Shown here: piece after piece, positions 20,314 to 51,485 of the stretch | Numbering within the stretch: position 1 is the first letter of the stretch | Layout of the letters: the number at the start of each line of letters is the position of its first letter | Assembly (NCBI GenBank): GCA_945946715.1 | Contig: CAMEWU010000001.1 | Location: forward strand, 1 to 57,702 | DNA from: an uncultured Clostridium sp. | Lineage (GTDB): Bacteria > Bacillota > Clostridia > Lachnospirales > Lachnospiraceae | Direction: 5' to 3' | Length of the DNA: 57,702 nucleotides | The notes under the pieces: generated by a model | Seen by the model: the letters and a program-made list of their open reading frames with translations, nothing else | Databases searched by the model: none | Told to the model about the DNA's origin: nothing | Position numbers and translations under genes: made by a program

Positions 20314-21135
20314 TTGGAATTGATTTTAGAGAAACCGGTGAAAGCGGTGAGCGTTCGAGCAGAACGAACTGTTTTATTCAATTCCGATTTTCGAAGTGTT
20401 CGATTGGACATTTTTGCTACCGATGAATTAGCAGTAGATTATAATTTAGAAATGCAAAATGAAGATGAAGGAAACCTTCCGAAGCGTAGTCGTTATCATC
20501 AGGCAGAAATTGATGTAGCATCTTTAAAACCAGGTGAAGATTTTAACGACTTGAAACCAAGTATCATAGTTTTTATATGTACCTTTGATCCTTTTGGAAA
20601 AAATGCATATCGATACACCTTTGAGCAACGTTGTACTGAGTATGATTTTGCATTGGGTGATGAAACAAAACGGATTTTTTTGAATACAAAAGGTAAAAAT
20701 GATAACGAAGTTTCACAAGAATTAAAATGGTTTCTAAAGTATGTAGAGAATTCCACAGATGGCTATGTAGACCAGGTGGAAAGCACTAAGATACGTCAAC
20801 TTCACGAAAGAGTTAAAGAGCTGAAAAGAAGCCGAAAATTGGAGGAACGCTATATGCATTTTGAAGAATTGTTAGAAAGGGAATTGAAAAAGGGGTTCGA
20901 AAAAGGCATTAAGCAAGGCATTGAACAAGGCATTGAAAAAGGCATTGAGCAAGGCATTGAACAAGGTATTGAACAAGGTATTGAGCAAGGTGTGAAAAAA
21001 GGTCAAGTAATGGAGCGCAAAAGACTCTTTACCTTAATTTCCCGTATGGCTTCCAATGGTGAAAGTGAACTTATTTCTAAATTAAGTGAAAATGAAGAAT
21101 TTTATGAGACAATGCTGGAAAAGTATAATCTGTAG
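20314..21135 (+). CDS. Rpn/YhgA-like PD-(D/E)XK nuclease ('putative transposase') family protein, apparently 5'-truncated, with a (G-I/V-E/K-Q/K) repeat
   Basis: LPKRSRYHQAEID...IVFICTFDPFGKN...RIFLNTKG core. The frame is closed by TGA at 20284, and only a TTG start without an SD is available. The usual ~35 N-terminal residues are absent. Confidence 0.6.
   Translation: MELILEKPVKAVSVRAERTVLFNSDFRSVRLDIFATDELAVDYNLEMQNEDEGNLPKRSRYHQAEIDVASLKPGEDFNDLKPSIIVFICTFDPFGKNAYRYTFEQRCTEYDFALGDETKRIFLNTKGKNDNEVSQELKWFLKYVENSTDGYVDQVESTKIRQLHERVKELKRSRKLEERYMHFEELLERELKKGFEKGIKQGIEQGIEKGIEQGIEQGIEQGIEQGVKKGQVMERKRLFTLISRMASNGESELISKLSENEEFYETMLEKYNL
20893..21000 (+). repeat. 12-bp in-frame tandem repeat (~9 units, GGCATTGAACAA-like) encoding GIEQ/GIEK/GIKQ
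   Basis: Read directly from GGCATTAAGCAAGGCATTGAACAAGGCATTGAAAAAGGCATTGAGCAA... Confidence 0.9.
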
Positions 21136-27227: not shown

Positions 27228-28184
27228 ATGGAATATATTAATATGCAGGGTATCCAAATTCCGCCATGTATGATTGGCACCTGGGCATGGGGCGGAGGTA
27301 TGAATGGATCCAAAATGGTATTTGGACAATCCTATGAGGAAGAACAATTGAAAAGTACCTTCCGGTGTGCCTATGATGCAGGATTTAACATGTGGGATAC
27401 GGCAGAAGTATATGGCATGGGAAATGCAGAAAAACTATTAGGTACATTTATTCAGAATACTCCGGTTATTATTTCCACTAAACATATGCCGGGAAAGAAG
27501 TTTAAGGCAGGAGCAATGGAAAGCTCCTTGACGGGGAGCTGTGAGCGATTGGGGATTGATGCACCGGATTTGTACTGGATTCATTTGCCGAATCGGGTAG
27601 AGGAAAACGTGACCGCGGCCGTTCAATTGTTAAAGGAAGGGAAAATAAAAGCGCTGGGTGTATCCAACTATTCCTTACAACAGATAGAGCAGGCAGATGC
27701 CATGCTGCAAAAGGAAGGGTTTCATCTGGCGGCTGTGCAGAATCATTTCAGTTTGCTATCCAGAGGAGCAGAGCAGCAGGCAATTATTGACTGGTGTCAG
27801 GAACGTGAAGTAGTGTATTTCTCATACATGGTTTTAGAACAGGGTGCTTTGACCGGACGGTACGATGAAAAACATCATTTTAAGACATTCTCCTTACGGG
27901 GATTGCAGTTCGGCAAGAAGAAGTTTCGTAAGATTCAGCCTCTATTGGATTATGAAAAAGAATTGGGCAAAAAGTATCAGGTGGATACATCCCAGATACC
28001 CATTGCCTGGGCAATTGCAAGGCATACAGTGCCGATTGTTGGACTGACAAAGCCACAGCATGCAGAACAGTTGAAAACAGTTTTGAATGTGAATTTAACG
28101 GAAGAGGAATTAGGTCGGTTGGAGCAATTGGCAGAGGAATCCGGTGTAGTAATTAAAGGGACGTGGGAACCGAAAGTTAAGTAA
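27228..28184 (+). CDS. Aldo/keto reductase
   Basis: MWDTAEVYG..., LGVSNY and NHFSLL motifs. GAAGGAGG RBS. Confidence 0.85.
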   Translation: MEYINMQGIQIPPCMIGTWAWGGGMNGSKMVFGQSYEEEQLKSTFRCAYDAGFNMWDTAEVYGMGNAEKLLGTFIQNTPVIISTKHMPGKKFKAGAMESSLTGSCERLGIDAPDLYWIHLPNRVEENVTAAVQLLKEGKIKALGVSNYSLQQIEQADAMLQKEGFHLAAVQNHFSLLSRGAEQQAIIDWCQEREVVYFSYMVLEQGALTGRYDEKHHFKTFSLRGLQFGKKKFRKIQPLLDYEKELGKKYQVDTSQIPIAWAIARHTVPIVGLTKPQHAEQLKTVLNVNLTEEELGRLEQLAEESGVVIKGTWEPKVK

Positions 28185-28205
28185 AATTAGGTAAATAAAG
28201 TTTTG

Positions 28206-28247
28206 AGAGAGCAATTCAAGAAAATAATTGAGTTGCTCTCTTTATTA
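28206..28247 (+). terminator. Rho-independent terminator
   Basis: AGAGAGCAA...TTGCTCTCT followed by a T-rich tail. Confidence 0.65.
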
Positions 28248-28420
28248 TTGATTACAATATAGATGAACGCTATTTTTTTAAAAACAACATGAAAATTGTT
28301 TAAAACAAACAAAAGGGTGAAAAAGTAATCAGTAATTATTAATATTTTCAACAGGAAAAACTTATGGTATGATTAAGTAAAATTAAGTAACAAAGAATAG
28401 TAAAAAGAAAGTAAAGAATA

Positions 28421-31396
28421 ATGAAGACGAGAAGAAAGAGAAAAAATTTTCAAAGTATTGTTATTGGAATGTCTATATTGGTAATGGCATGTGGACTATG
28501 GGGAGAAGGCCAATGCTCCTATGCACAGGCATCGAGGGAAACGACAATGGTGGACCAAATCATCATTGATGATTTTGAGGATGGAACGACTAGTGGCTGG
28601 GCAACATTAACAGGTTGGGACTATGATGGGGATGTTGGTATTACGGCTGTAGAATGGAATGGAGAAAATGTATTAAAATTAGATTTGGATTATACCGGCA
28701 AGGAAGAAGTTAGTTGGAGTGAAGCAAAGATTAAAAAGGATTTTTCTTCACCATATAGAATTTCCTCGTATAATTATTTGACCGTTGATATATATTATCC
28801 GGCAGAATTAAATGTAAACAATCTGGGAATGAAATTCTTTGCTAATGATGCAATAGACAAGGATGTATCAATTGAAGAAATCGAGACACTCAGTAATGGA
28901 TGGAAGAAAGGAATAGCAGCATTGAAGTTTTCACCGTCATCGAAACCACTTGGAAATTTGATACTGGGTATAGTAGGAAAAAATACAGGTTTTGTTGGCT
29001 CTGTGTATATTGATAACATTGTTTTAGGTCAATATAATGAGACTGGTGATTATGTTGACATTACATCTGTTCCGAATGCCACAGGAACACAGGCAAACCT
29101 TACCGGAATGCCTACGGAAGTAAAGTTGGCCGATGATTCAGCAACAGCAGAAACAATAAGATTGTATAGTTATTTGACTGCTCTTTCTGCGAATGATCAG
29201 GTGTTGTTTGGGCATGAAAATGATTATAACAAGAAGGTTTCTCAGACCGCATCCGAAGGTGATGTGAAGGAACTGACAGGAAGCTTAAGTGGTATATATG
29301 GTATTGATACCTTATCCATTTCAGGAGCTGAGCTTGGATTAACTGACTCAGAAGAGGCGATGAATACAGCAGTAGCGAACAGTCTGGCAGCAGCAAATCA
29401 GGGTTCTATTATAACCTTATCTGCACATATGCCGAATTTTACGAGTAATAAGATTACCGAGAATTCGGACGGTACATATAATTTTACTGCTTGTGATTTT
29501 GCTGAGTCGAAGGATTTAAACAACAACTGTGCAGAACAGATATTGCCTGGCGGAGCATATAATGCACAGTTCAATTCATATTTGGATATGATTGCAGAAT
29601 ATGCATTAAGATTACAGGATGAAGATGTACCAATTCTATTCCGACCATTTCATGAGAATAATGGCGGATGGTTCTGGTGGGGCTCCGGTACCGGTGTGGA
29701 AACTTACAAGAGTATTTATCGATATACAGAAGAATACTTAGGAGAAAAGGGAGTACATAATATGTTGTATGTATACTCTCCAAATGGACCTTTTACCAGT
29801 GAAAGTAAATATCTGGAACGGTATCCCGGAGATGAATATGTAGATATCTTAGCCTTTGATTATTATGACGATTATAATACTTATCCGGCAACTTCTGATG
29901 GAAGCTTTTACGATAGCTTAAAAACGTCCTGTCAGGTAGTATCTGGAATTGCTGTTCAAAAAGGAAAGCTGGCAGCTATTTCGGAAACCGGTGTCAGAGT
30001 CATGAAAAAGGATGGTTCTGATAATGAAGGACTGTTAATGACCGGAAATCCTGTGGCACAGAGTATAACCGGGAAAAACTGGTATCAGGAAGTAAGTGAA
30101 ATCGCAAATGAAGCTGGAATGCCTTATTATCTGGTATGGGCTAATTTTGGTGATACTAATTTCTATGTACCATATAAATACAACCATACTACGGGACAAG
30201 AAATGGTTAACGAATTCATAGACTTCTATAATTCGGATACATCCATATTTGCAGATGGAACTAATTTTTACTATGATTCTACATCCGTTACGGCAACATC
30301 TTATACCAATGCTTATGGATATATGATTGCACCATTTGACGGAGCAGTTATTAAAGATGCTACAGTATTGAGTGGAAGTGTTAAAAACGGAACTGATGTA
30401 AATTTCGTAATTACCAATCCGGATACCGGAAAGACATTACCATTGCCGGGTGTAATGCAATCAGAAACAAACGACACGACTACAATTTCGAATCAATATA
30501 CAGCAGAATTAAGCAAAGCACAGTTGGAAGAGCTTGGTAAGACAGACTCAGCAACCATTGAATTGAGATCAGGAGATACTTCGATTGCTATTTTGAGAAA
30601 TGTCAGCCTTGGAAAGGACAAGGATAAGGCACCGGCAAACATCATTGATAATTTTGAATTCTATGCAGGAAGTGAAAGCTTGTTACAAAGTACACATACT
30701 GAGAATTCTGCAGGCGGGTGTACTTCTGAATTCCTGTTGGATACTGAGAATAAATCTGACGGCAATTATGGCGGTGGATTCCATTATCAATTGGAAACTA
30801 CTGGAAGCGAGGTGTGGACTGGTCAGATTCTGGCATTAGAAAATCAGGATTACTCTGCATATAACGCTATCGAGATGTGGGTGAAACCGGATGGAAAGGC
30901 TCAGAAGTTTGTAGTACAGTTTACAGATGCGTCCGGTGAAGAATTCGAAGTGTATCTGACGAATTTCGTAAAGGGGACAGAGGCACAATATGTAATCATT
31001 CCATTCTCCTCTTTTGTAGGGAAGCAGGGAGGAACATTGGATACATCTAGATTAACAAAGTTTGCTGTATGGTGTAATTCAATTATTCCAGAGAATCATA
31101 CCGGAACATGGAAAGTAGATTCTACAATCTATATGGATGGAATCCAAGGAATAGAAGTGTCGGAAGAAACATTGAGTCAGGTGGATGAAGACGGATTGAT
31201 TTTTAGCGATACTTCATTTGCGAATCAAGAGGGTACGGCATCAACAACGGATTCTTCCGATGATGGTACCTCGACTCAAAATAATTCTAAGATTGTAGGT
31301 AAAGTTTTACTTTGTCTCGCTATTGTAATTGTAGTAGCGACTATAATATTTGGCATCATAGGTTTGAAAAGAAAAAATAATCAAAAGAAGAAATAA
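28421..31396 (+). CDS. Secreted GH26 beta-mannanase with flanking carbohydrate-binding-like domains and a C-terminal TM anchor
   Basis: Signal peptide. GH26 motifs FRPFHENNGGWFWWG (acid/base) and AAISETG (nucleophile). C-terminal hydrophobic helix followed by KRKNNQKKK. Confidence 0.8.
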   Translation: MKTRRKRKNFQSIVIGMSILVMACGLWGEGQCSYAQASRETTMVDQIIIDDFEDGTTSGWATLTGWDYDGDVGITAVEWNGENVLKLDLDYTGKEEVSWSEAKIKKDFSSPYRISSYNYLTVDIYYPAELNVNNLGMKFFANDAIDKDVSIEEIETLSNGWKKGIAALKFSPSSKPLGNLILGIVGKNTGFVGSVYIDNIVLGQYNETGDYVDITSVPNATGTQANLTGMPTEVKLADDSATAETIRLYSYLTALSANDQVLFGHENDYNKKVSQTASEGDVKELTGSLSGIYGIDTLSISGAELGLTDSEEAMNTAVANSLAAANQGSIITLSAHMPNFTSNKITENSDGTYNFTACDFAESKDLNNNCAEQILPGGAYNAQFNSYLDMIAEYALRLQDEDVPILFRPFHENNGGWFWWGSGTGVETYKSIYRYTEEYLGEKGVHNMLYVYSPNGPFTSESKYLERYPGDEYVDILAFDYYDDYNTYPATSDGSFYDSLKTSCQVVSGIAVQKGKLAAISETGVRVMKKDGSDNEGLLMTGNPVAQSITGKNWYQEVSEIANEAGMPYYLVWANFGDTNFYVPYKYNHTTGQEMVNEFIDFYNSDTSIFADGTNFYYDSTSVTATSYTNAYGYMIAPFDGAVIKDATVLSGSVKNGTDVNFVITNPDTGKTLPLPGVMQSETNDTTTISNQYTAELSKAQLEELGKTDSATIELRSGDTSIAILRNVSLGKDKDKAPANIIDNFEFYAGSESLLQSTHTENSAGGCTSEFLLDTENKSDGNYGGGFHYQLETTGSEVWTGQILALENQDYSAYNAIEMWVKPDGKAQKFVVQFTDASGEEFEVYLTNFVKGTEAQYVIIPFSSFVGKQGGTLDTSRLTKFAVWCNSIIPENHTGTWKVDSTIYMDGIQGIEVSEETLSQVDEDGLIFSDTSFANQEGTASTTDSSDDGTSTQNNSKIVGKVLLCLAIVIVVATIIFGIIGLKRKNNQKKK

Positions 31397-31423
31397 CCAT
31401 TAAAATGTGTGTGTGTGTGAAAA

Positions 31424-31449
31424 GGCAGTCTGGCAGCAGGCTGTCTTTT
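31424..31449 (+). terminator. Rho-independent terminator
   Basis: GGCAGTCTG-GCAG-CAGGCTGTC followed by TTTT. Confidence 0.55.
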
Positions 31450-31510
31450 CTAATGCATTAGCACGCTTCCTATGATATAATAGTTGTAATGTAATACGGA
31501 GGTGATAGAT

Positions 31511-32668: not shown

Positions 32669-33865
32669 TTAAGGTTTGTCAATGAGAAACCGGTCTGCCA
32701 GTAACAGCCAGTTTGCCCGGAAAAGACGCATAATCTGCCAGTACCCCATACCGTGTAACTGATACTCTTTTACCAGATTGAATTTTGCCTGCATACTGCG
32801 GACATCCTCAAACCATACTTCGTGGGCAATTCCGTTATTGGTATAAGTAAAGAAGGGAGACATGGCAGTTTCGTCAAATTGTATCTCGGCTCCATTGTTA
32901 GCGGCAATGGTAATAGCTTCAACATTCCCGATGGTAGTAGCTCTGGTCACTCCTTTTTCATAAGGTAAAGGCCAGTCATATCCATAATTGGGAATCCCCA
33001 GATTAATTTTTTCGTTGGGAATACGGGTAAGGGCATATTCTACTACCTGTCGGACGTTATTAATAGGAGCGACTGCCATTGGCTGGCTATAGGTATATCC
33101 CCATTCATAAGTCATTAATAAGACTTCGTCAGCGGCTTCCCCTAATAAAGCATAATCCTTCCCTTCATATAGCAGTCCGGGCTGGTCGTCACTGGTCTTG
33201 GGTGCCAGAGCAACGGTAACCGGATATCCAAGTTGATTGATTGCAGAGCGGACATCACGGACAAAGTCAGCAAATACAATCCTGTCCTGTGGCAGAATAT
33301 ATTCAAAATCAATGTCTACACCCTGAAATCCTTTTTCTAATACCGTAGATGTCAGATTCTCAATTAACGTTCTTTTCGTAACAGGATGATTGATGACTGC
33401 AGAAATCAGACTGTTATTAAAACGTCCGCTGGCATCAAAGGGGGTTAATGTCAGAAAGGGCGCGGTGCCATTAATCAAGGCGGCTTGAATCATGTAAGAA
33501 TCATCCACCATCGGTGGAATTAATTCACCTTCCATGGAAAATCCATAAGAAAAGACGGATAATCTGGATAAATATGGAAGGGTTTGGTTCAGAACCCATT
33601 GATTGATAAAGGGATAGGCATACCCATTTGTAACCACAAAACGGGAAGGCTGTATTGTGGAAGGAGTGGATAACAGTAATGCCTGCCCTATAACCAACGT
33701 GTATGGATAAATTAATTGGTTATTGTAAATGATAGTGTCTGCCCCAATCTGATAAGTGGCAGCTATGGAATTGACGGTGTCACCGGAAGCTACAATGTGG
33801 ATAGTCATAAAAGGGTCCGTTTCGCAGGTCTTATTCATTAGTATATGATAAAAATCTCTTAACAT
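32669..33865 (-). CDS. LysM-domain GH18 hydrolase (YaaH/SleL-like spore peptidoglycan hydrolase). True start probably internal, near 33808.
   Basis: LysM HIVASGDTVNSIAATYQ...NQL followed by the GH18 catalytic motif GVDIDFEY. Confidence 0.75.
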   Translation of the reverse strand: MLRDFYHILMNKTCETDPFMTIHIVASGDTVNSIAATYQIGADTIIYNNQLIYPYTLVIGQALLLSTPSTIQPSRFVVTNGYAYPFINQWVLNQTLPYLSRLSVFSYGFSMEGELIPPMVDDSYMIQAALINGTAPFLTLTPFDASGRFNNSLISAVINHPVTKRTLIENLTSTVLEKGFQGVDIDFEYILPQDRIVFADFVRDVRSAINQLGYPVTVALAPKTSDDQPGLLYEGKDYALLGEAADEVLLMTYEWGYTYSQPMAVAPINNVRQVVEYALTRIPNEKINLGIPNYGYDWPLPYEKGVTRATTIGNVEAITIAANNGAEIQFDETAMSPFFTYTNNGIAHEVWFEDVRSMQAKFNLVKEYQLHGMGYWQIMRLFRANWLLLADRFLIDKP

Positions 33866-33887
33866 TCAATTTTGACGGGGGTATACT
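33859..33887 (+). promoter_or_regulatory. Promoter of the T-box leader
   Basis: TTAACA, 17 nt, TATACT. Confidence 0.5.
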
Positions 33888-33910
33888 AGCAACCAGAAAA
33901 AGGAAAATAA

Positions 33911-34170
33911 ACCGATGAGCAAGAGGAGTAGGCAGGCATGAAGCACCCAGAGAGCCGTAGGTGGTGAGATTACGGCAGTGGATAACCTGGTGAATGGGCT
34001 TGCGAGGGTGGCTTGAAATCATGTAAAGCATGAGAGTAGATGTCAACGGGGTTCCTGCCGTTATCAGAAGGAGACATATGGAAGTATGTTCAGAGTGGGT
34101 ATAGATATACCAATTTGGGTGGTACCGCAGAAGTGTAAGCTTTTGTCCCTTAGTAGGGACAAATACCTTT
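33911..34170 (+). promoter_or_regulatory. T-box riboswitch leader with specifier codon UGG (tryptophan), including antiterminator and terminator
   Basis: K-turn GATGA...GA. Specifier loop AGTA / GAA-TGG-G (codon at 33995-33997). AG bulge AGAGAG and distal loop GGTGGTGAGA. T-box AATTTGGGTGGTACCGCAG (34113-34130). Terminator TTTGTCCCT-TAGT-AGGGACAAA. Confidence 0.85.
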
Positions 34171-34452
34171 AATATCTCCACAGCATCATCCATTGTAGTA
34201 TCTGCTTATGGCATTCCGGTAGCCAAGCATGGGAACCGAAGTGTGTCCAGCAAATGTGGTGATTATGGAAAAATCTACTGTGATGCCAATGGAAATAGCA
34301 CCGTTCACGAAGGCACTTGTGATTTCCCAAACTGCATGGGTTCTCATGTATATGCATGTACGACATGTGGAGGAGGAACAACTCCGGTTACCTGTGCAAG
34401 CTGCAATGGAAGTGGAAAGTGTAAGGTTTGTGGCGGAAGCGGAACACAGTAA
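34162..34452 (+). pseudogene. trpD: Chimeric relic ORF: 33 codons of trpD (34162-34260) fused in frame to a 63-codon Cys/Gly-rich tail
   Basis: [33 protein letters not shown] matches the TrpD signature NISTAS...[13 protein letters not shown]. There is no ATG or SD (only a GTG at 34243). The tail carries [15 protein letters not shown] and CKVCGGSG motifs. Confidence 0.6.
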
Positions 34453-34471
34453 CAGAAAGAAAATCAGATGA

Positions 34472-34527
34472 ATTACCGACTAAGTCATTGCCAATAATGG
34501 TAATGACTTAGTCGGTAATTGTTTTTT
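34472..34527 (+). terminator. Strong rho-independent terminator
   Basis: 18-bp stem ATTACCGACTAAGTCATT / AATGACTTAGTCGGTAAT followed by TGTTTTTT. Confidence 0.85.
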
Positions 34528-34609
34528 AAAAATCTCTTATATATAATGATTCTTGTGTGAAAACGAATGAGAGTTATTTATGAATATTAGTTATAGGAGT
34601 AAGGAAAGT

Positions 34610-36349
34610 ATGAAGTTCAACCAAAGACTAAATGAGTATATTGAGGAATTACAATGTTCTGCCAAAGAGCTGGCAGAAGCATCCCGGCTTTCAGCAACGG
34701 TTGTCAGCAGATACCGGACAGGTGAGCGTGTTCCGGCAGCAGACAGTGAACAGCTTCAGAAGCTGGTATCCGGTATTGTGAATGTGGCTCAAAGCAAAGG
34801 AAAGAATGAACTGGAAAAAGAAATCGTTTTTCAGGAATTGGCGGACACATTAAAAGAGAATGATTGGAATTATGATATATTTTTGAAGCATTTTAATGCA
34901 ATTATACTGGTTCTTAATATCAATATAGCTGAGATGGCAAGGGGAATTAATTACGATGCCTCCTATATCAGCCGGATTCGTTCCGGTCAGCGCCATCCTG
35001 CTAATATGGAGAATTTTATTGAAAACATTAGTCAATTTATTGTAAAAAGATATAATAAAACTACAGATTTAGAAATCGTAGCACCATTATTGAATGTAAG
35101 TGTAGCTGATATAGAAGCAGAACCAAGATATCTGGCAGCATTGCTGGAATGGTTTTATAGCGAAGAATCCTCACAAAAGAAGGATGATATCAGTGAGTTT
35201 TTGAAACAAGTAGATGAATTTGATTTAGATGAGTATATTAAGGCCATTCATTTTGATGAAATGAAAGTACCACCGGCTCTACCTGTTCAGTTACCAACTT
35301 CAAAGAATTATTATGGGCTGGAAGCTATGAAAACAGGAACTTTGGATTTCCTGAAAGCGACGGTAATGGCAAAAAGCATGGAAGATGTATATGTGTTGGA
35401 TGATACGCCTATCGCAGATAAAGCAAAAGACTCTGATTTTCCAAAAAAGTGGATGTTTGGCATTGCAATGGTGTTAAAGAAAGGCTTACATATCCACATG
35501 GTTCATAATTTAAACAGGCCATTTGAGGAAATGATGTTAGGTCTGGAAGCTTGGATACCCCTTTATATGACGGGACAGGTTTCTCCGTATTATTTAAAAG
35601 GAGTTCACAATCAGGTGTTTGGGCATTTTCTGTATACGTCAGGAGTTGCTGCCTTATCCGGGGAAAGTATTGCAGACTATCATGACCATGGGAAATATTA
35701 TTTGACGAAAAACCGGACAGAACTTTCGTATTACCGCCAACGTTCAAAAGATATTATCAGTCAGGCAAATCCGTTGATGGAGATATATCGAAAGGCAGAA
35801 GAAGATACATTTCAGGCGTTTTTGAATCGTGATGCATTAGAAGATGGCTCCCGGCATGAATTGTTGTCGGCATTGCCAATTTATACGATTTCAGATGATT
35901 TATTAGTGCGTATGCTTCAACGGAATGGGATAGATAATGAGGAGCAACAGCAAATCATACAGAAAGTCAATGAGTTAAAGCGTATTACAGAAGAGATTTT
36001 GAAAAAGAATCCAATCCGCACAGAGATTCCGGAACCTACCAAAAAGGAATTTCAAGAGCATCCCATGCGCTTGTCATTATCAGGGATATTCTATGAGCAG
36101 GAAATTGTTTATACTTATGAAGAGTATCTGGAACATCTGGAGCAGACGAAAACGTTTGCAGAAATTCAGAAGAACTATAGTTTGCAGCGAATGAAAGTGG
36201 AAGCGTTCCGAAATATCCAGATAACCATTCATGAAGGAAAATGGGCAATGGTATCCAAGAATAAATGTCCGGCAATACATTTTGTAATCCGGCATCCGAA
36301 GCTATGTAATGCATTAGAGAATATGGTAACACCAATGATAGAACCATAA
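34610..36349 (+). CDS. Large XRE-type helix-turn-helix protein (two HTH motifs), function unknown
   Basis: LQCSAKELAEASRLSATVVSRYRTGERVP and NIAEMARGINYDASYISRIRSGQRHP. Start chosen at MKFNQRLNEY after AGGAGTAAGGAAAG. Confidence 0.6.
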   Translation: MKFNQRLNEYIEELQCSAKELAEASRLSATVVSRYRTGERVPAADSEQLQKLVSGIVNVAQSKGKNELEKEIVFQELADTLKENDWNYDIFLKHFNAIILVLNINIAEMARGINYDASYISRIRSGQRHPANMENFIENISQFIVKRYNKTTDLEIVAPLLNVSVADIEAEPRYLAALLEWFYSEESSQKKDDISEFLKQVDEFDLDEYIKAIHFDEMKVPPALPVQLPTSKNYYGLEAMKTGTLDFLKATVMAKSMEDVYVLDDTPIADKAKDSDFPKKWMFGIAMVLKKGLHIHMVHNLNRPFEEMMLGLEAWIPLYMTGQVSPYYLKGVHNQVFGHFLYTSGVAALSGESIADYHDHGKYYLTKNRTELSYYRQRSKDIISQANPLMEIYRKAEEDTFQAFLNRDALEDGSRHELLSALPIYTISDDLLVRMLQRNGIDNEEQQQIIQKVNELKRITEEILKKNPIRTEIPEPTKKEFQEHPMRLSLSGIFYEQEIVYTYEEYLEHLEQTKTFAEIQKNYSLQRMKVEAFRNIQITIHEGKWAMVSKNKCPAIHFVIRHPKLCNALENMVTPMIEP

Positions 36350-36370
36350 CGTATATAGATTATGAAAATG

Positions 36371-36400
36371 AAAAAGGGCGTTCAATAGAACGCCCTTCTT
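36371..36400. terminator. Bidirectional terminator
   Basis: AAGGGCGTTC-AATA-GAACGCCCTT with A/T runs on both sides. Confidence 0.75.
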
Positions 36401-36420
36401 GTATGTGATGAATGATGTAC

Positions 36421-39400
36421 TTATTCTATCCATGCACCATCTTTATTCAAAGTATAACCGTCAATGACAGTATCATATGCCATTTCGCCGGACTCTTTCA
36501 GATAATACCAGGTTCCGCCATCATTGAACCAACCGGTCTTCATAGAACCGGAAGCATCCAGATAATACCAGTTATCATCCAACTTCAACCAGCCGGTCTT
36601 CATAGCACCGGACTCTGTGAGATAATACCAGGTTCCACCGTCGTTAATCCATCCCGTTGCCATAGCACCGGAATTGGTTAAGTAGTACCAGGTTCCACCG
36701 TTCTGAAGCCAACCGGTCTTCATTGCACCGGAAGCATCAAAGTAGAACCAGTCATTATTAATTTGCTTCCAGCCGGTTGCCATCCATCCGTCTGCATCAA
36801 AGTAATACCAGGTTCCGCCAATTCCCTTCCAAGTACTGGTTGGGTAAGTTGCGTCTGCATACTGATACCACCATTTGTTCCCGGACTGTTTCCAGCCTTC
36901 CTGTACCGGATTTTGAACCCAGGCTCCTGAAGAACCTACATAGCTTCCTCCAATCCAGGTAGATTCTGCCATTTTACCGTTGCTCTGGAAATAATACCAT
37001 GTACCGTTAATTAACTGCCAACCGGTCAACATTGCTCCTGAACTATCCAGATAATACCAGGTTCCGTCAATTTCCTGCCAGCCGGTTTGCATAACAGCAT
37101 CCTTGTTGAAATAATACCAGATGCTGTTGATTTCTTTCCAGTCTGTGACAGCAACGCCGGTATCATCTAAATAGTACCATGCGGTATCTTCTTCATACCA
37201 CTGGCTGGTAACGATTTTGCCATCCTTATATAAGACCTTGGTTCCGTCTTCCTTTACATACCATCCATTGTCCGGAATTGCCGGTGTTGGATCCGCCGGA
37301 GTTGAAGGTGTTGGATTCTCCGGAGTTGGAGGTGTTGGATCCGCCGGAGTTGGAGGTGTTGGATCTTTTTCTGTTGTTTTATAAGCAATTGCATATTTTG
37401 AAAAGCTGTCTGTTTTAAAGGTGACTGTCTTTGCAGCAGCATCGTATGTAGCAGAAATTACCTCATAAGTACCATCGTGCTTCTGGTGTACAATTTCAAC
37501 ATCATCCGGCAACTCTTCTGATACAGTCAGAGAAATGGTTGCTTCATTTGTTAAATCTGTAATTTCAGTCGACCATACATCCTCCTCGCTTCCTCTGTAT
37601 ACAACATTGTTAAGATTCAAATCAAGATATGAATCAATGGAATATCCATTGGCAGCGGTTGTAAAGCCGGAAACATCTGTGGCTGTAGGCTGAACATCAT
37701 CAACACTTAGAACCGCAGTACCCATTGAGAATTCATCTGCATTTTCAGCATTAATTCCGATGCTACCGGTTGAAATTGCCGTAGAGCTTGTAGCTACTTT
37801 ATCCTCTACCGGTGCACAAGTTGCACCAAGGTGACAGTTGCCATTTGCAATGGTAAATGTATATTCTGCAACCTTATCCGGATTCGAACCAAACGCACCA
37901 CCATTTGGACCAAATGTTACAACCTGATAACCATATCTAGGAACTAATCGTACGGTAAGCTTACCACCTGCAATCAGAGTTGCTTCACCACGGTTTGGAT
38001 CTTCACTAAAACTTAAGTAAGCGTGATTGGCATTATTCATATCTTCCAGGTTATCATATGTTATTGTCTGACCTGCTCTATCCTGATATGAAAAACTTAC
38101 GAATTCTACAAGTGTGTGATCCAGGAATTGATCCGAACCTGCATCTTCTTCCAGATTGGACCATAGGAAGTTACCGGTTGGGAAATATCGATTCTGCGCG
38201 TCAATCTGTTCCTCACTACAGGTAAATTCTATCATTATTTCTAATACTCCATCTGCCATACTGTCAGGTATCACAAAGGAAAGACCGCTTTCGGATACCA
38301 AATCATCACGATTTGGATTTCCAATTGTATCCCAATCAACATCAACGCCATTAAATTTCATTCCAAAATAATCTAATTCAAAACCATCATTTGGCTTTGC
38401 ATATATGGTGAATGTCTTTCCCGGTGTTAATGAAGAAGGGTAGGTTACATCATTCGCTGATATATCCGGATAATTGTATGTGTCATATTTGTATCCAACA
38501 GTTCCGTTGATAGCATTCCGCACCTGAAAATGGATTGCATCCGCTCCAGAACCATAAGTACTTTCTGAACCAATAATTTCCATATTTGCAGTAACATTAT
38601 AGGTATCAGCATATGGTACAGTCAGAATAAATGATATTGTCTGAGACTGACCATTCAAATCCATGGCTTCAAGAATATCCCATTCACGAGTAGCTTCATT
38701 GGAACCCGGGATCTGACTTGAGTAATCTACGCCATTAATTTTAATTTCAGTATATCGCATATTAATTTGATTCACGAATTCAAATTCTACTGCATGAGAT
38801 CCTCCTACCTTTGGAGTAGCTGGATCCGCTGCATTATATGGATAAGTAACGAAAGGTTTTTGCGTAACAATATCCATTTGAGATCCTTCATCATAAGAAC
38901 GCTCCTGTGCATCTGCCCCGTTTATGTAATAAATTGCAGTAACAGGGAGACCGGCACCATCATGTAAATCTGTACCGCTAAAATGAATAGTGGAAGTTTT
39001 ATTTCCATCAAAATTGTATTCTTTCGATGCACCAGAGCCAGCGTGGCCACCGCCACCAGGCTGAGGGTCATTGCCACCATTGTCAGAACCAAAGCCAAAT
39101 TCTACTTCAAAGCTGGAATTTGCAACGGTACGTCCTTCATCCAATAAATCAGATAAATCAATTGTTACGCCATCGTTGCCTGTAAAACTTTCTGCTTCAT
39201 TGCCGGTTGTGCTATACTTACTTGCACCATTCACCCGAACGTTGACTCCTCTTCCTGCGTCAAGAGTATAGCCGCCATTTGGTTCGAATTTAAGTGTGAT
39301 GTTATTTGATGCACTTACATTCACTGAAGCATAGGAATTGGTTTCCGCTGTCTCAGCCACCATTGTAAAGTTCGAATCACCATCCAGCTTGTACCATATA

Positions 39401-39897
39401 TGACCGCCGGTCACTGCATTATCTTGACACTTAAAAGAAACTGTGCCTGGTTCTGCAGGCTGAGGGTCACCACCGCCACCGCCAGCACCGTTGTCAACTC
39501 CAAACTCTACATCATTAAGCGCTGTATTACTTGTGATGGCATAGCCCGCTTCGCTAATAAGAGCATTCTTGATTGTGCTCTCAGAATCGGTTTCAAGTAA
39601 ATTAGTATCGCCCTGTTTTAGTTGAATACCGGTCCAATCAACCTTATAACCCCCATTTGGAACAATTCTTACGGCAACCGCAGTCTGTGTGCCTTCGGTG
39701 TAATCTGTCCATCCAGAATTGTCAGTTGCTTTGTACTGCACCGTACCTTCCCCTTTATCAGCTTCACTCCGAAAAGTAACGGATAGGGTGACGACTTCTG
39801 CATGTACAGGAACAATTGGCTGACTACTCATAATAATGGAAAAAGCCATTAAAGCACTGAGAAGTCCCGCCAGTTTTCGTTTGACCTTTAACTTCAT
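36421..39897 (-). CDS. 1158-aa secreted surface protein: repeated beta-rich modules, a Pro/Thr linker, and ~13 C-terminal choline-binding-type cell-wall-binding repeats
   Basis: Signal peptide MKLKVKRKLAGLLSALMAFSII. Recurring PNGGY-x-(L/V)D modules. PTPPTPADPTPPTPENPTPSTPADPTP linker. GW-x4-G-x-WYY-x3-SGAM-x-TGW repeats. Confidence 0.85.
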   Translation of the reverse strand: MKLKVKRKLAGLLSALMAFSIIMSSQPIVPVHAEVVTLSVTFRSEADKGEGTVQYKATDNSGWTDYTEGTQTAVAVRIVPNGGYKVDWTGIQLKQGDTNLLETDSESTIKNALISEAGYAITSNTALNDVEFGVDNGAGGGGGDPQPAEPGTVSFKCQDNAVTGGHIWYKLDGDSNFTMVAETAETNSYASVNVSASNNITLKFEPNGGYTLDAGRGVNVRVNGASKYSTTGNEAESFTGNDGVTIDLSDLLDEGRTVANSSFEVEFGFGSDNGGNDPQPGGGGHAGSGASKEYNFDGNKTSTIHFSGTDLHDGAGLPVTAIYYINGADAQERSYDEGSQMDIVTQKPFVTYPYNAADPATPKVGGSHAVEFEFVNQINMRYTEIKINGVDYSSQIPGSNEATREWDILEAMDLNGQSQTISFILTVPYADTYNVTANMEIIGSESTYGSGADAIHFQVRNAINGTVGYKYDTYNYPDISANDVTYPSSLTPGKTFTIYAKPNDGFELDYFGMKFNGVDVDWDTIGNPNRDDLVSESGLSFVIPDSMADGVLEIMIEFTCSEEQIDAQNRYFPTGNFLWSNLEEDAGSDQFLDHTLVEFVSFSYQDRAGQTITYDNLEDMNNANHAYLSFSEDPNRGEATLIAGGKLTVRLVPRYGYQVVTFGPNGGAFGSNPDKVAEYTFTIANGNCHLGATCAPVEDKVATSSTAISTGSIGINAENADEFSMGTAVLSVDDVQPTATDVSGFTTAANGYSIDSYLDLNLNNVVYRGSEEDVWSTEITDLTNEATISLTVSEELPDDVEIVHQKHDGTYEVISATYDAAAKTVTFKTDSFSKYAIAYKTTEKDPTPPTPADPTPPTPENPTPSTPADPTPAIPDNGWYVKEDGTKVLYKDGKIVTSQWYEEDTAWYYLDDTGVAVTDWKEINSIWYYFNKDAVMQTGWQEIDGTWYYLDSSGAMLTGWQLINGTWYYFQSNGKMAESTWIGGSYVGSSGAWVQNPVQEGWKQSGNKWWYQYADATYPTSTWKGIGGTWYYFDADGWMATGWKQINNDWFYFDASGAMKTGWLQNGGTWYYLTNSGAMATGWINDGGTWYYLTESGAMKTGWLKLDDNWYYLDASGSMKTGWFNDGGTWYYLKESGEMAYDTVIDGYTLNKDGAWIE
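36424..37250 (-). repeat. Coding repeats: ~20-aa cell-wall-binding (CW_binding_1-like) units
   Basis: Periodic TGW...GTWYY... in translation and ~60-nt periodicity in the DNA. Confidence 0.85.
37283..37365 (-). repeat. 24-bp tandem repeat (~3.4 units) encoding the PTPPTPAD linker
   Basis: GGTGTTGGATCCGCCGGAGTTGGA-type units read on the plus strand. Confidence 0.9.
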
Positions 39898-40067
39898 TTA
39901 ATCACTCTCCTTGTTTATTTTTGTTCATCAATAATAATGACATACTATTATTACAAACTACCTATATCTTACCAAAATCCTTATTTTTCAACTATATTTT
40001 TACCGTTAATGGCATTGACAAATCTGGCAATTCTGTTATCATGATACAGCATGGAAGGAAGGTTTTT

Positions 40068-41510: not shown

Positions 41511-41545
41511 AAGGAGACAGAACCTCTATGAGGAACTGTCTCCTT
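41511..41545. terminator. Hairpin between convergent genes, overlapping the last codons of the minus-strand gene
   Basis: AAGGAGACAG-15 nt-CTGTCTCCTT. Confidence 0.5.
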
Positions 41546-44042
41546 CAGTGTGATAGGGACGTTTTCTTCGCTGAATATATACTATCATGCCGGCACCAAG
41601 AAGAAGTCCCAATAGGGATACTATGCTACCGGTCAGCAGATGAGGATATACAATGTGTAATGTAACCTGTGGTTCATCTATGACCAGTAGATTATTTTCG
41701 TTATGAATGGCTTGCTGTGTCCGGAAATTATCCTGAAAAGCAAGGGTAGTATTTACCGGTACCTTTTCGCTTTCAATGATTATGGTATTTCCCTCCATAG
41801 AAATAGAAATTGGAATTATTTCCCGGTTCGGTATCTGGCTGTATTTTAATTGAAAACAGTCATCTAAGATACTCCATAAGTCCGGATTGTCTGTGTTCAT
41901 GGCAAAGTAAGCCAGGTTCAGACCCAGATAGTATATGTTTTCGTTGGAAGAGTCATAGCTTAAAAATGGTATAATTTCTCCGCCTTCATTGATATAACCT
42001 AAGACCTGATCCGGTTCATTGGTATATCCGGTAAGCCATTCCTCAGAACCTTCCGGAAACTGTCCTGCAGCAATGCTGTCATTCTTGTAGTGGAGATTCG
42101 GAAAAGTATGGGTCAAAGTAATGGTGTCCTGTGTTATTCCCAAAAAGGTCTTTTCCATCCGCCCATTTTCCGGAATGTGGGCACAGTCAATAACAATTCG
42201 TGTACCCTGATTTGCTACCGTTTGTAGCAGGGATTCTGCTTCTTTTTGATTGTGATAGGAGAATCCACTTAAAAACAAAGTATCATATGCGGTTAATTCT
42301 TCCACAGAATAATCGTCGATATAATTGGACATCCCGGTTGTAAAAGTCGGATAATAAATGGACAAGGCGGCTCCGTATTCTCCGATGGTAAGGCCGGAAT
42401 ATTCAGTTGCTACACCAAAGGTTTCCGGTGTGCTGGCTTGGAATAAGTAGGTGGCCTCAGTTTCTTCAATTAACTCATATCCACAGGCTTTTGCAGCATC
42501 CAGCAGCTGTTTCTCCTGATGAACAAGAGATTTTCGAACCATTACGGCATCATCTCCTAATTCAATGCTGCGGTCGAACACATAGAGATATTCTTCCCGT
42601 TCCAAAGCTTCATTTACCAGCATAATATTCTGAGCAGTAGCAGCTCCCTGCCAAGCCCATCCAAAGGTATAATCTACAGCATCGTCACCGGTTACCATGC
42701 TCCAGGATGGATAAGAACCAAAGCTGCTTAAGTCCATTAAACTCCCCCGCTGTTGAACATGTTCTTTTAATAATAGGCTGTCTGTTTTAGCAACTTCTGG
42801 AGCCGGTGTATAGTATCGGGGCAGACAAGCCAGTGAAACAGCACTGTCTGCAATCATCAAAGACATAAATAGGATGGCATATTTCTTTCTTAATGTGTTC
42901 CATTCCAGCAGAGACAACAAGAAACAGGCATAAGCAAGAGCATTAAAGCGGGTCATCCAAAGAAATTCTCCCAAAGGAATATGTCTGGTAACCGTAGCTG
43001 CTGCCGGGGTAGTACCCAGCAGGACAAGTAGTGCAAAACAGAAACCGGCTTTCTGTTTTTTATTTGCCAGTAAAATACCCAATATGGTTATAATCAGAAT
43101 AGATATTCCAAAGTAATATGTGTCCGCCACACCGGTCACCCGGTTTTCAGGATTCAGGGAAGTAGTCAAAGAAAAGGTCAGCAGGTCATGAACCTGTGAG
43201 CTGGAATCACCCATAGAAAGCATACCCCCTGACAAGGCAGGAATAAACCAGATACCGGCTATCAGGATTCCGATTACCATAGCGGTCAAAGCTTCGATAT
43301 CTTGTTGGAAATGACGGTTTAAGAATCCGTCAAAGCATAAGAACAGAAAGCATCCGATTCCTACAATGGCAGTAAACATCAGATGGGTAAAGGTCATAAG
43401 GCTCATGGTCAGCATTAATCCAATAAGACCGGAACGCTGTTGCTTCCGGATGTATCTCCAAAGGAAATAGATTACATAAGGAATCCATACAGATGTCAGA
43501 ATTCGCGGCATATTTCCTTCACAGAAAAATACCCGGATATTATCCGGCAGGAAGGTCCAGAGCAAAGCACAGCCAATGGCAATCACAGGACGCTTACTAT
43601 CCTTTCCCATAAGGAGAAACGGAAAACCGCCGAGGAAGCAGACACAGCCTGCAAACAGATAATAGGCATGTAGAATATCGCCTCCGGTTATCCATTGAAG
43701 CAATGCCATAAAGTAATAAGCCAGTGGTGGCCAGTAACGGTAAAGTTGGATGCCATTATACCACTGAGGAGAATACAGGGGATACCAGTCACCAGCCAGA
43801 ATATGATCATACATATACTTGGATTTATACATATGTCCCCAGACATCATTACCGGAAGGCTCCCAGTGGTTCAACCACAAAAAGGCAGTGAAAGTCATGG
43901 CGGTAAGCAGTAGAAGACCTGCACCAATCCAGAAGAGCAGAGTGGCTTTCTTTTCTATGCTTGGTTGTGTTTGTTTTGGTTGTATTGGTTTCATAGGTTT
44001 TGTCCTCCATGTAACGGATACAGGTACATTAATCATCTTCAA
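41526..44042 (-). CDS. 838-aa polytopic membrane protein (GT-C-like N-terminal half, extracytoplasmic C-terminal half, terminal TM + RRKR); exosortase-G-locus-associated
   Basis: More than 10 predicted TM helices in aa 30-400, a soluble region, and the terminal segment LLTGSIVSLLGLLLGAGMIVYIQRRKRP. The ORF overlaps the upstream gene in the same operon. Confidence 0.6.
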   Translation of the reverse strand: MKMINVPVSVTWRTKPMKPIQPKQTQPSIEKKATLLFWIGAGLLLLTAMTFTAFLWLNHWEPSGNDVWGHMYKSKYMYDHILAGDWYPLYSPQWYNGIQLYRYWPPLAYYFMALLQWITGGDILHAYYLFAGCVCFLGGFPFLLMGKDSKRPVIAIGCALLWTFLPDNIRVFFCEGNMPRILTSVWIPYVIYFLWRYIRKQQRSGLIGLMLTMSLMTFTHLMFTAIVGIGCFLFLCFDGFLNRHFQQDIEALTAMVIGILIAGIWFIPALSGGMLSMGDSSSQVHDLLTFSLTTSLNPENRVTGVADTYYFGISILIITILGILLANKKQKAGFCFALLVLLGTTPAAATVTRHIPLGEFLWMTRFNALAYACFLLSLLEWNTLRKKYAILFMSLMIADSAVSLACLPRYYTPAPEVAKTDSLLLKEHVQQRGSLMDLSSFGSYPSWSMVTGDDAVDYTFGWAWQGAATAQNIMLVNEALEREEYLYVFDRSIELGDDAVMVRKSLVHQEKQLLDAAKACGYELIEETEATYLFQASTPETFGVATEYSGLTIGEYGAALSIYYPTFTTGMSNYIDDYSVEELTAYDTLFLSGFSYHNQKEAESLLQTVANQGTRIVIDCAHIPENGRMEKTFLGITQDTITLTHTFPNLHYKNDSIAAGQFPEGSEEWLTGYTNEPDQVLGYINEGGEIIPFLSYDSSNENIYYLGLNLAYFAMNTDNPDLWSILDDCFQLKYSQIPNREIIPISISMEGNTIIIESEKVPVNTTLAFQDNFRTQQAIHNENNLLVIDEPQVTLHIVYPHLLTGSIVSLLGLLLGAGMIVYIQRRKRPYHTEGDSSS

Positions 44043-45108
44043 TCATACTGATGACATAGGAACGGGAAGGGGTTTCACTCATTTCCATCATAAGGAATAA
44101 CCAGCCCTCTTCATTTAAAATGGTACTAAGCTGTTCTTTAAAATAATCACAGCAGTTTTCCAGTGTAGGATTAATGATATCGAAAGGAGGACATTCATTT
44201 AAATCCTTATCCTGATATTGATCCATAAAAGCCTCAATTTTCTTTTCCAAATCCGTGAACTGAATAAAATTCTGTTGCATCTTAATCACATGGAGTGTAA
44301 TTTCCCAGGTGTGAGGATGCATGGCACCCAGTACGCCATTAATATAAATGGCATGTCGGGCATTTAAGTAAAACTTGAATTTATACTGTTTATACCGATT
44401 ACTTTTGCCACTGTGGTGAATGGTAATGGAGGTGTCTTCACCATCCGGTTTGGCTGTATTCTCTAATCGTTCGAATTCCTGATTGCGTTCCAATAGTTCT
44501 TTCTGTGTTTGGGTAAGAAGCCGTTCTGTTTTGGTCCAGGCACCGGATAGGGCAGTGACAGCACCAATTGCCAGAAGCAGCAGGACCGCAAAAAGCAGAA
44601 TGATATATACCTCATAGGTAGTAATACTACCTGTAGATAAAAACTGGGAGCGGTCTGTAATCATTCCTACGGTATAGGTATCAGCTCCTACATTAAAATC
44701 GGTGGTAGTAAGTATTCCATTTTGTGCCTTCAGGTTTTCAAAGAAGGATGCCCGGTCTTTCAAAGTGGTTAGCGACTGGGTGGTTGACAGGTTTTTGGCA
44801 AAGATAACCTGCTCATTCTGAATCAGGAAGGTCCAGCTTCCCCCGGAAACAGGCACATGGGTAGACAGATATTCCACGACCTCTTCGGAAGAAGCACCTG
44901 TTTCATACATGGTAAAAAGGGTATCTGAAAGCTGATTACAGTACTGCTGCTGTGTATTGGTATCCCGGGTCACGTAACTGTTGGTAATTCCATTCAGAAT
45001 AGTAAGTAACAGAACAATGGAAGCAACGGTTACCAGTATAATAGTAAGGATTATGGTGGTCAAACGACTGGCAGGATGCTGTTGCCAGTGGAAGGTTTTC
45101 TTATTCAT
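44029..45108 (-). CDS. Membrane protein with TM / extracytoplasmic domain / TM / coiled coil and a C-terminal 6-pyruvoyl-tetrahydropterin-synthase (PTPS)-related domain
   Basis: TM segments at aa ~17-37 and ~178-200. C-terminal FKFYLNARHAIY...MHPHTWEITLHV resembles the PTPS/QueD His-ligand pattern. Confidence 0.6.
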   Translation of the reverse strand: MNKKTFHWQQHPASRLTTIILTIILVTVASIVLLLTILNGITNSYVTRDTNTQQQYCNQLSDTLFTMYETGASSEEVVEYLSTHVPVSGGSWTFLIQNEQVIFAKNLSTTQSLTTLKDRASFFENLKAQNGILTTTDFNVGADTYTVGMITDRSQFLSTGSITTYEVYIILLFAVLLLLAIGAVTALSGAWTKTERLLTQTQKELLERNQEFERLENTAKPDGEDTSITIHHSGKSNRYKQYKFKFYLNARHAIYINGVLGAMHPHTWEITLHVIKMQQNFIQFTDLEKKIEAFMDQYQDKDLNECPPFDIINPTLENCCDYFKEQLSTILNEEGWLFLMMEMSETPSRSYVISMIEDD

Positions 45109-46486
45109 CTGTATTTACCTCCGATTTCCATTTCTGAAGCTGCCGACGGATTCCTTGAAAATCATGTCGGATAACATTACAAAAAGCAGCCCATTCCTCT
45201 GAGAAATTCTTCATTTTCCAGCTCTGCGTTCCTTTAATGGCATTAATGATGCCGGCAAAGCGAAACCAGAATATCATAAAATTATAAAGAGGCAGCAGGG
45301 CAATCAAATACCATTTTCTGGCATAATAGCGTTGTAACTGTTTCTCTTTTGATAAAAACATCAGAATGCAGATATAAAGCAAAAGAGTAGAAAACACATA
45401 TAACAGGTACATGATGATAACGGATTTTACAATCAGCATAATAGGATAATTAATAAATGCAAGGCATATTAAAGCAAAATACCAAATCATCCGGGGAAAT
45501 GCAAAGGTATGGTCATACATCAGTAAGCGAATGACAAAATCGGATAAGAAGCCTTTGCCAAAAAACATACCACGTCCCTTAAACATATGCATGACTTCAA
45601 TTTCTCCCCGTTGCCAACGCTGGCGCTGGATATAAAGACGGTTCAAGTCTTCAATAGGGTCAACAAAGAAATATGCATCTTCACATAATGCCACCTGTTC
45701 CTTCAAGGTGTCCCGAATCTGGAAGGTTACATGTGTATCCTCACAAATAGTATCTGTATTATATAGCTGTGTTTTTAAAATGGCTGACTTTCGAAAGGCA
45801 GAAAAGGCACCGGATAGAGTAAATATGCTGTTAAACTCTGATTGAAAATTCCGTCCGGCTAAAAAGGCCTGACAGTATTCGAAGAATTCCAGCTTCCGCA
45901 GCAGACGGAGAGGAAAAGATTTAGTTTCATCAATCATTTCCGGATTTGTCATAATGGTACCGGTCAGACAGTCAATGGTATCTTCCTCTTCAAATCGGCG
46001 CACCATATTGTACAGGGCTTCCGGATGCAGAACTCCATCACTGTCGATGTGAATAATGTATTTTCCATAGCTGTTAAATAAAGCCAGATTTAATGCTTTG
46101 GATTTCCCCTGCTCCGAATTCATCCAGGTGATAGTTAGCTCAGGGAAGTCCTCCTGGCATTGACAATATACCTGAAAGCTGTCATCGGTACTTTCATTAT
46201 TGACTAACATAATATAAATCAGTTTACTGTCATAGGTAGAATCATTTATGGATTTGATGCATGCATAAAGCGTCTCGGCAGAGTTATATACCGGAATAAT
46301 CAGTGTAATTTCCGGGCAATACTGCAATTCTTCCTCTTTTTTTCTGAAGATTCTACGCTTCAGCAAAATAAAAAAGTCAAAAACAGTGGGAATAATTTCC
46401 ATTACAATGGGAATGATAACCCATGCCATCCAAAAGAGAATCGGACTATGCAATAAATCATTCATGAATGTCATATCGGAATGCAC
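45101..46486 (-). CDS. Processive family-2 glycosyltransferase (PgaC/cellulose-synthase-like), exosortase-G-associated type
   Basis: IIPVYN, HIDSDG (DxD) and QRQRWQRG (Q-x-x-RW) motifs, with N- and C-terminal TM helices. Exact start uncertain (ATGs at 46486, 46474, 46465). Confidence 0.8.
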   Translation of the reverse strand: MHSDMTFMNDLLHSPILFWMAWVIIPIVMEIIPTVFDFFILLKRRIFRKKEEELQYCPEITLIIPVYNSAETLYACIKSINDSTYDSKLIYIMLVNNESTDDSFQVYCQCQEDFPELTITWMNSEQGKSKALNLALFNSYGKYIIHIDSDGVLHPEALYNMVRRFEEEDTIDCLTGTIMTNPEMIDETKSFPLRLLRKLEFFEYCQAFLAGRNFQSEFNSIFTLSGAFSAFRKSAILKTQLYNTDTICEDTHVTFQIRDTLKEQVALCEDAYFFVDPIEDLNRLYIQRQRWQRGEIEVMHMFKGRGMFFGKGFLSDFVIRLLMYDHTFAFPRMIWYFALICLAFINYPIMLIVKSVIIMYLLYVFSTLLLYICILMFLSKEKQLQRYYARKWYLIALLPLYNFMIFWFRFAGIINAIKGTQSWKMKNFSEEWAAFCNVIRHDFQGIRRQLQKWKSEVNTDE

Positions 46487-51474: not shown

Positions 51475-51485
51475 CAAACCATAAT

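Follow-up and report, generated by a model that had tools for sequence, protein, structure and literature searches.

A probable relic of a T-box-controlled tryptophan operon in an uncultured Clostridium sp. and its deletion alleles in the same species

The DNA analysed here is a stretch of 57,702 nucleotides (nt) from an uncultured Clostridium sp. (contig CAMEWU010000001.1, positions 1-57,702), and "the window" denotes this whole stretch and not the feature itself. Between its GH18/LysM gene and a gene for a helix-turn-helix (HTH) protein lie a T-box leader and, directly behind it, pieces of two protein-coding genes (Table 1). In the tryptophan version of such a leader, the UGG specifier and the antiterminator bulge UGGU both base-pair with uncharged tRNA-Trp, whereby the terminator is blocked and trpD is read. 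A covariance-model search with RF00230, the Rfam T-box model, led to a match of 109.7 bits (E 2.1e-23, model positions 1-219; gathering score 93 bits), the alignment of which contains the K-turn, an AGUA/GAA specifier loop, an AGAGA bulge, the distal loop, Stem III and the T-box sequence. The specifier loop reads GAA-UGG-G (33992-33998) with the codon UGG at 33995-33997, in agreement with a preliminary description of this DNA, and this codon fits the tryptophan pathway. GAA-UGG was invariant across seven aligned leaders preceding trp genes, the next base being a purine, A or G. The T-box sequence AAUUUGGGUGGUACCGCA and the antiterminator with its UGGN bulge are the same as in an intact allele, and orthologous leaders on contigs L082, L089, L095, L098 and L099 score 96.5-114 bits with the same model.

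The preliminary description had listed all canonical T-box elements and had considered riboswitch and promoter undamaged. This holds for the K-turn, specifier loop, AG bulge, distal loop, T-box sequence and antiterminator, but not for the terminator, which consists in the window of a 9-bp stem (34142-34150 / 34155-34163) followed by UACCUUUAAU and has neither the lower four base pairs (bp) nor the U-tract. Intact alleles have a 13-bp stem and a run of five to seven U, with the sequence running on as ...AAAGGCTTTTTAT(A/T)TTTTT, and the predicted stability is -15.4 kcal/mol in the window versus -24.0 and -21.5 kcal/mol in intact alleles. The promoter is altered as well: the intact allele on L089 has TTGACA-17-TATACT, and a G>A exchange at 33861, present in all deletion alleles, changes its -35 element to TTAACA. 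L082 and L092 have a further change in the -10 element (TAAACT), and G33954A in the group around L091 breaks one Stem I pair. A33998G, the base 3' of the specifier codon, is specific to the window; it was ruled out as damage and is taken to be harmless because the working leader of L095 likewise carries G there. Thus, specifier and antiterminator are intact, but the truncated terminator would be expected to compromise regulated termination.

Immediately behind the terminator stem follows an open frame that had been read as the core of anthranilate phosphoribosyltransferase, and indeed 33 codons of it match Glycos_transf_3 (E 2.3e-13, 50.8 bits, cut-off 27 bits; profile positions 16-49 of 253). 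Its DNA is 100% identical to trpD codons 86-118 of L091 and L082 and 97% identical to those of the intact L089. As already stated in the preliminary description it has no start: no in-frame ATG or ribosome-binding site (RBS) precedes it, the frame running open from the T-box, whereas trpD of L089 begins with the RBS AAAGGAGTG, a 6-nt spacer (AGTAAT) and ATG. A TrpD protein (TIGR01245; PF02885 and PF00591) is not encoded, as the N-terminal helical domain and GTGGD are deleted in addition to start and RBS. When the 42-aa (amino acid) frame with the relic was used as protein query, only nine short TrpD fragments with 57-77% identity were obtained and no donor was identified, and no JGI metagenome contig contained an exact 27-mer taken from the T-box. 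No other trp gene was found in Pfam scans of all sizeable open reading frames (ORFs) of the window, again as described before.

The second relic corresponds to the "Cys-rich ORF", for whose regulation the leader had been proposed to be retained. Using tblastn, it matched residues 228-285 of a 287-aa ORF on L002 with 84% identity. The full-length lipoprotein gene is intact on L091 and L093 (287 aa; PF23750 RsgI_M, E 1.9e-14 in L091), but of its signal peptide with lipobox, RsgI_M domain and Cys-rich tail only the last 58-59 codons remain in the window. The only homologue found in a database search, P0001, overlaps the 3' end of an RsgI_M gene on L081. A genuine small gene was rejected, since the ORF is a tail fragment of the full-length genes of L002 and L091; it has neither start nor RBS, is out of frame in the sister allele L082, and the proposal that it is the regulated gene was therefore dropped. 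That it lies in frame with the trpD relic is an accident of the deletions. Hence the window leader precedes only start-less relics, whereas the leader of L089 precedes trpD. Behind the lipoprotein relic follows a strong intrinsic terminator, native to the lipoprotein gene and located upstream of the HTH gene promoter, and a homologous hairpin with compensatory stem changes is found upstream of the HTH gene of L001. This very strong terminator is predicted to block read-through into the HTH gene.

Table 1. Features of the trp relic locus and deletion junctions of the compared alleles (window coordinates; slashes in junction sequences mark the joined ends)
Feature	Position	Strand	Alleles	Details	Basis
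Leader promoter	33859..33887	+		-35 TTAACA 33859-33864, 17-nt spacer, -10 TATACT 33882-33887	sigma-70-like
T-box leader RNA	33906..34153	+		Stem I (K-turn, specifier loop, AG bulge, distal loop), Stem II/IIA, Stem III, antiterminator	RF00230
T-box sequence	34112-34129	+		AATTTGGGTGGTACCGCA	RF00230 alignment
Truncated terminator hairpin	34142..34163	+		TTTGTCCCT / loop TAGT / AGGGACAAA	folding and allele alignment
Junction J1	34160..34163	+	window only	294 bp; 4-bp CAAA: AGGGACAAA/GGCTTTTT and GAGGCAAA/TACCTTT	
trpD relic	34162..34260	+		codons 86-118 of 335 (NTFNIST...SSKCG)	Pfam PF00591 and nt identity
Junction J2	34251..34261	+	window, L082, L092	11-bp repeat CAAATGTGGTG	
Remnant of trpA-lipoprotein spacer	34262..34273	+		12 nt, ATTATGGAAAAA; J3 at its 3' end	allele comparison
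Junction J3	3' end of 34262..34273	+	window only	~761 bp; ~1 nt overlap, GGAAAAA/TCTACTG	
Lipoprotein 3' relic	34273..34452	+		59 codons and stop, of 287-aa gene (RsgI_M domain, CxxC-rich tail)	tblastn
Strong intrinsic terminator	34471..34528	+		23-bp arms (hairpin 34471-34520), then T6	-35.6 kcal/mol
Lipoprotein internal deletion			L082, L092	8-bp repeat GGCACTTG; internal out-of-frame segment removed	
trpD::trpA fusion			L091, L093, L094	~8-bp GGTATGGT	judged by proxy from L095 trpA

To compare alleles, contigs were selected by their GH18/LysM homologues, which form a graded series and of which the 98-99% versions were used. The contigs concerned share 95.8-98.1% nt identity with the window over aligned 1.7-13 kb and are therefore conspecific with it. 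Among them the locus occurs in four states. L089 and, in part, L090 represent the intact state, with promoter, T-box (111.9 bits), 13-bp terminator and U-tract, RBS, ATG and trpD, trpCF and trpB. On L089, trpD (335 aa; TIGR01245, 412 bits), trpCF (466 aa; NF006945) and trpB (TIGR00263), inside which the contig ends, occupy the position of the window relics and adjoin the same GH18/LysM gene (98% GH18 aa and ~97% nt identity). The intact operon of the species lies between the divergently transcribed GH18/LysM gene and the lipoprotein gene. In the second state, found in three runs (L091, L093 and L094), the leader is intact and trpD codons 1-~213 are joined in frame with the last ~70 codons of trpA, the deletion having removed everything from trpD codon ~214 into trpA, most of which is lost as well; a small hairpin (CCACATTTG...CAAATGTGG), the intact lipoprotein gene with its terminator and the HTH gene follow. 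Leader and terminator are also intact in the third state (L082, L083 in part and L092), in which trpD codons 1-118 are joined at J2 to sequence behind trpA and the lipoprotein gene carries an internal out-of-frame deletion at GGCACTTG. The window, with J2 and the further deletions J1 and J3, is the fourth state. All intermediate alleles come from independent sequencing runs.

This comparison bears out the earlier idea of a fossil T-box-regulated trp operon, as the conspecific L089 has promoter, T-box, trpD, trpCF and trpB at this very place, and also the idea that the deletion is recent, as other strains still carry intermediate alleles. It corrects the gene content assumed for the ancestor: the operon was not trpEGDCFBA but trpD-trpCF-trpB-trpA. 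In L089 the T-box terminator leads directly to RBS and ATG of trpD, and in L091 the 3' end of trpA leads directly to the next gene, from which it follows that trpE and trpG were never at this locus in the species.

The fused gene of the second state is an observation in its own right: TrpD residues 1-~213 and the C-terminal ~70 aa of TrpA form a 284-aa chimera (L091 2972-3826 (-), also on L093 and L094), whose gene is preceded by an intact T-box, terminator, RBS and ATG, and a useless fusion protein may still be made under tryptophan limitation.

Comparison of the alleles shows that the lineage of the window lost the operon in three deletions. J2 arose by deletion between two copies of CAAATGTGGTG, one at trpD codons 115-118 and one in the 3' arm of the hairpin behind trpA (visible in L091 1230-1330). 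Starting at trpD codon 118 and extending slightly beyond trpA, it removed the rest of trpD, trpCF, trpB and trpA, amounting to ~4.1 kb from the intact ancestor as sized by proxy on the complete L095 operon. J1 formed between two CAAA copies; it joins the 3' arm of the terminator to trpD codon 85/86 and removed the lower four terminator pairs, the U-tract, the RBS, the start codon and trpD codons 1-85. J3 is the deletion in which the promoter and the first ~228 codons of the neighbouring lipoprotein gene were lost. As the window and L082 each retain lipoprotein sequence that is missing from the other, the lipoprotein deletions are independent events. Direct repeats of 4-11 bp at four of the five junctions would fit RecA-independent slippage or illegitimate recombination. 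What is left is a promoter with a weakened -35 element, a T-box without terminator base and U-tract, and 33 trpD and 59 lipoprotein codons without a translation start. Any present transcript would be a non-coding RNA of ~0.6 kb ending at the downstream hairpin (34471-34528).

Substitutions in trpD codons 1-118 point in the same direction. The differences that the dead alleles L091 and L082 have in common relative to L089 are nine synonymous and no non-synonymous ones, and those between L091 and L082 are one synonymous and five non-synonymous (hypergeometric calculation, 10/5005 = 0.002). L091 trpD has in addition L168P and G178R at conserved TrpD positions. The trpD remnants therefore appear to be under relaxed selection and to evolve as pseudogenes, and the pattern suggests that the common ancestor of the dead alleles had already been inactivated, in which case J2 would probably have arisen on an allele like that of L091.

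Taken together, from the truncated terminator, the start-less relics, the allele series and the substitution pattern, the region is very probably a remnant, no longer functional, of a trpD-trpCF-trpB-trpA operon whose T-box sensed tRNA-Trp. It is ordinary gene loss caught part-way and no new regulatory device, and the leader would be nearly intact because the time for decay was too short, not because it was kept for function. Three points weigh against this interpretation. With the Rfam model the leader remains above threshold, specifier and antiterminator are unchanged, and residual transcription or tRNA binding is possible. Leader substitutions are too few for a test of constraint: between L091 and L082 the T-box differs at 1/248 nt versus 6/354 nt in the trpD remnant, which is not significant. 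Finally, J1 and J3 are known from the window assembly alone.

We consider it highly unlikely that loss of the operon is a segregating, possibly selected polymorphism within one species in which the T-box leader is kept as a free-standing RNA that binds or senses tRNA-Trp. A leader selected in this way would explain why a T-box of full score (~110 bits) is kept in every deletion allele (7/7 contigs) despite the loss of 3.6-4.9 kb of coding DNA nearby, with specifier and antiterminator identical to the intact allele. The same observations could be claimed for an orphan leader under selection, either for tryptophan-dependent read-through into the Cys-rich ORF or HTH gene or as a tRNA-Trp-binding non-coding RNA, which we regard as less likely still: the Cys-rich ORF lacks a start and represents only the 3' piece of a gene, out of frame in L082 and L092 and in L091 part of a complete, separate gene that has an RBS of its own, and the -35.6 kcal/mol terminator with T6 separates it from the HTH gene. 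Moreover, the leader has not been spared, with the -35 element weakened in all dead alleles, the -10 element also changed in L082, a Stem I pair broken in L091 and regulated termination compromised by the truncated terminator of the window.

Lower again we place an assembly artefact, in which the window would be chimeric or collapsed and the true genome would have an intact operon or an allele like that of L082. J1 and J3 are indeed unique to the window, and its source may be a metagenome assembly. J2 and both flanks, however, recur in three independent assemblies from Logan, conspecific contigs are collinear with the flanks on either side, and the overlaps at J1 (4 bp) and J3 (~1 bp) are far below any assembler k-mer and therefore make graph mis-joins implausible, so that misassembly of the window is unlikely.

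Least probable of all is a mobile or captured cassette, that is a 678-bp mosaic of gene fragments with a 13-bp target-site duplication or a product of template switching from distant loci. In its favour, the module is flanked by the two copies of a perfect 13-bp direct repeat (33849 and 34527; two matches at up to one mismatch in only 5/100 shuffles), and a synteny breakpoint exists relative to L001/L002 and to a sister species (89% GH18). Against it, the left copy overlaps the leader -35 region and exists as ...TCTCTTGACA in the intact allele with the whole operon between the copies, and the right copy, which is partly conserved in L001 and in L091 shorter by one A, belongs to the HTH promoter region. 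Furthermore, the module has no transposase or integrase as neighbour, and simple deletion from a collinear ancestor explains every junction. The repeat was rejected as a target-site duplication for the same reasons, its copies lying in two promoter regions and bracketing the full operon in the intact allele, and the cassette, first suggested by the lack of a T-box and the different gene order in L001 and L002, was dropped given the conspecific alleles. As a separate observation, TAAAAATCTCTTA at 33849-33861 and 34527-34539 lies in the upstream parts of the T-box and HTH-gene promoters, and the repeat may have arisen by chance or represent an element common to the upstream regions of both promoters.

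Several features of the surroundings were recorded in passing. The HTH gene (34610-36349 (+)) encodes a 579-aa protein whose N-terminal part has two HTH_3-like segments and whose large C-terminal region is uncharacterised; at least 117 proteins across Clostridia genomes are related to it with 40-81% identity, and it matches no NCBIfam model. Looking up the exact sequences of the flanking GH18 and HTH proteins, with two alternative starts for each, gave no match. Within the species, a gene for a 991-aa protein of the GH26 (mannanase) family (28421-31396 (+)) shows presence/absence polymorphism, being present in the window, L091 and L092 and absent from L082, L089, L093 and L094, in which the aligned sequence passes directly from window position 28175 to 31499. 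A flavin mononucleotide (FMN) riboswitch (RF00050, 114.7 bits, 55293-55407 (-)) precedes a rib operon (genes 49457-55136 (-)) made up of a 188-aa ORF without Pfam match, ribD, ribE, ribBA, an epimerase-family gene and ribH; in L095 these rib genes adjoin the trp operon. The region 41526-48267 (-) encodes a PTPS_related membrane protein, PTPS-domain proteins, a GT2 glycosyltransferase and an exosortase-EpsH-like protein, a cluster conserved in L084.

Gene order around the locus also differs between lineages. L001 and L002, the closest relatives in the genome collection by HTH gene, have no T-box and show the order ThiF-HTH-choline-binding protein-lipoprotein-PDDEXK-MATE. In the sister species (L084-L086, 89% GH18) MATE lies directly beside GH18 with a spacer of 113 bp (L084 9889-10000), and the whole 6.2-kb block with T-box, relics, HTH and choline-binding protein genes (window 33866-40007) is absent, either by deletion in that species or by insertion in the lineage of the window. 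The gene for a 1158-aa choline-binding-repeat surface protein (window 36421-39897 (-), L002 11893-15123 (+)) is inverted relative to the HTH gene in comparison with L001 and L002, where the lipoprotein gene moreover flanks the HTH gene on the opposite side; local gene order has therefore been rearranged between lineages. Genes or gene ends of PD-(D/E)XK nuclease-family "transposases" (PDDEXK_2, Rpn/YhgA-like) were observed in the window (20314-21135 (+)), on L002 (16430-17374 (-)), next to the rearranged lipoprotein/MATE junction, and on L095 (1-307 (+); gene end judged by eye from the C-terminal sequence), immediately 5' of the relocated T-box-trp operon. A link of these genes to the rearrangements is speculative.

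In L095, whose TrpD is 91% identical, the T-box-trpD-trpCF-trpB-trpA operon lies elsewhere, between a PD-(D/E)XK-family gene and DUF5684 with the rib operon, and the trp operon module has moved between loci in the clade. L099 likewise has a T-box directly before trpD, and the trpD-first operon, being shared by the species, L095 and L099, is therefore a feature of the clade. T-box control of trp genes as such is well known in Firmicutes (PMC2494555 and references therein), and works listed there deal with the T-box-regulated trp operon of Lactococcus lactis and trpEGDCFBA operons of clostridia (van de Guchte 1998; Gutierrez-Preciado 2005; listed in PMC2494555). The present locus resembles these operons in its RF00230 leader, UGG specifier and downstream pathway, and L098 (TrpD 73% identical) with T-box-trpE-trpG-trpD-C-F-B-A is of the classical type. 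It differs in that the leader of the species, L095 and L099 runs straight into trpD without trpE or trpG and in that the operon is deleted in the window. A partial trpDCFBA operon without trpEG reportedly occurs in Chlamydia caviae and likewise begins at trpD, but in a different phylum and with TrpR instead of a T-box. An operon that begins at trpD needs anthranilate from elsewhere or an unlinked trpEG, and the T-box-trpDCFBA type flagged here in the clade may rely on anthranilate supplied by the community.

Loss of tryptophan genes and auxotrophy have been described for the gut Firmicutes Roseburia inulinivorans A2-194 and Faecalibacterium, with auxotrophy verified for some Lachnospiraceae and Ruminococcaceae (PMC7360928), and tryptophan auxotrophy, predicted for 63.9% of human gut reference genomes, is the most often predicted one (PMC10689445). 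The kind of event is thus already known, and as in these cases trp biosynthetic genes were lost in a gut Lachnospiraceae lineage. The allele series within one species is unusually complete, running from the intact operon through the in-frame trpD::trpA fusion and a deeper deletion to the most eroded form in the window, and it documents the stepwise loss of a costly amino-acid pathway in a gut bacterium. It also illustrates that a T-box called by an annotation pipeline is no proof of a regulated gene. Unlike the losses described so far, the present one is polymorphic within one species, and leader, 33 codons and junction repeats are still legible, so that the individual deletion steps can be reconstructed.

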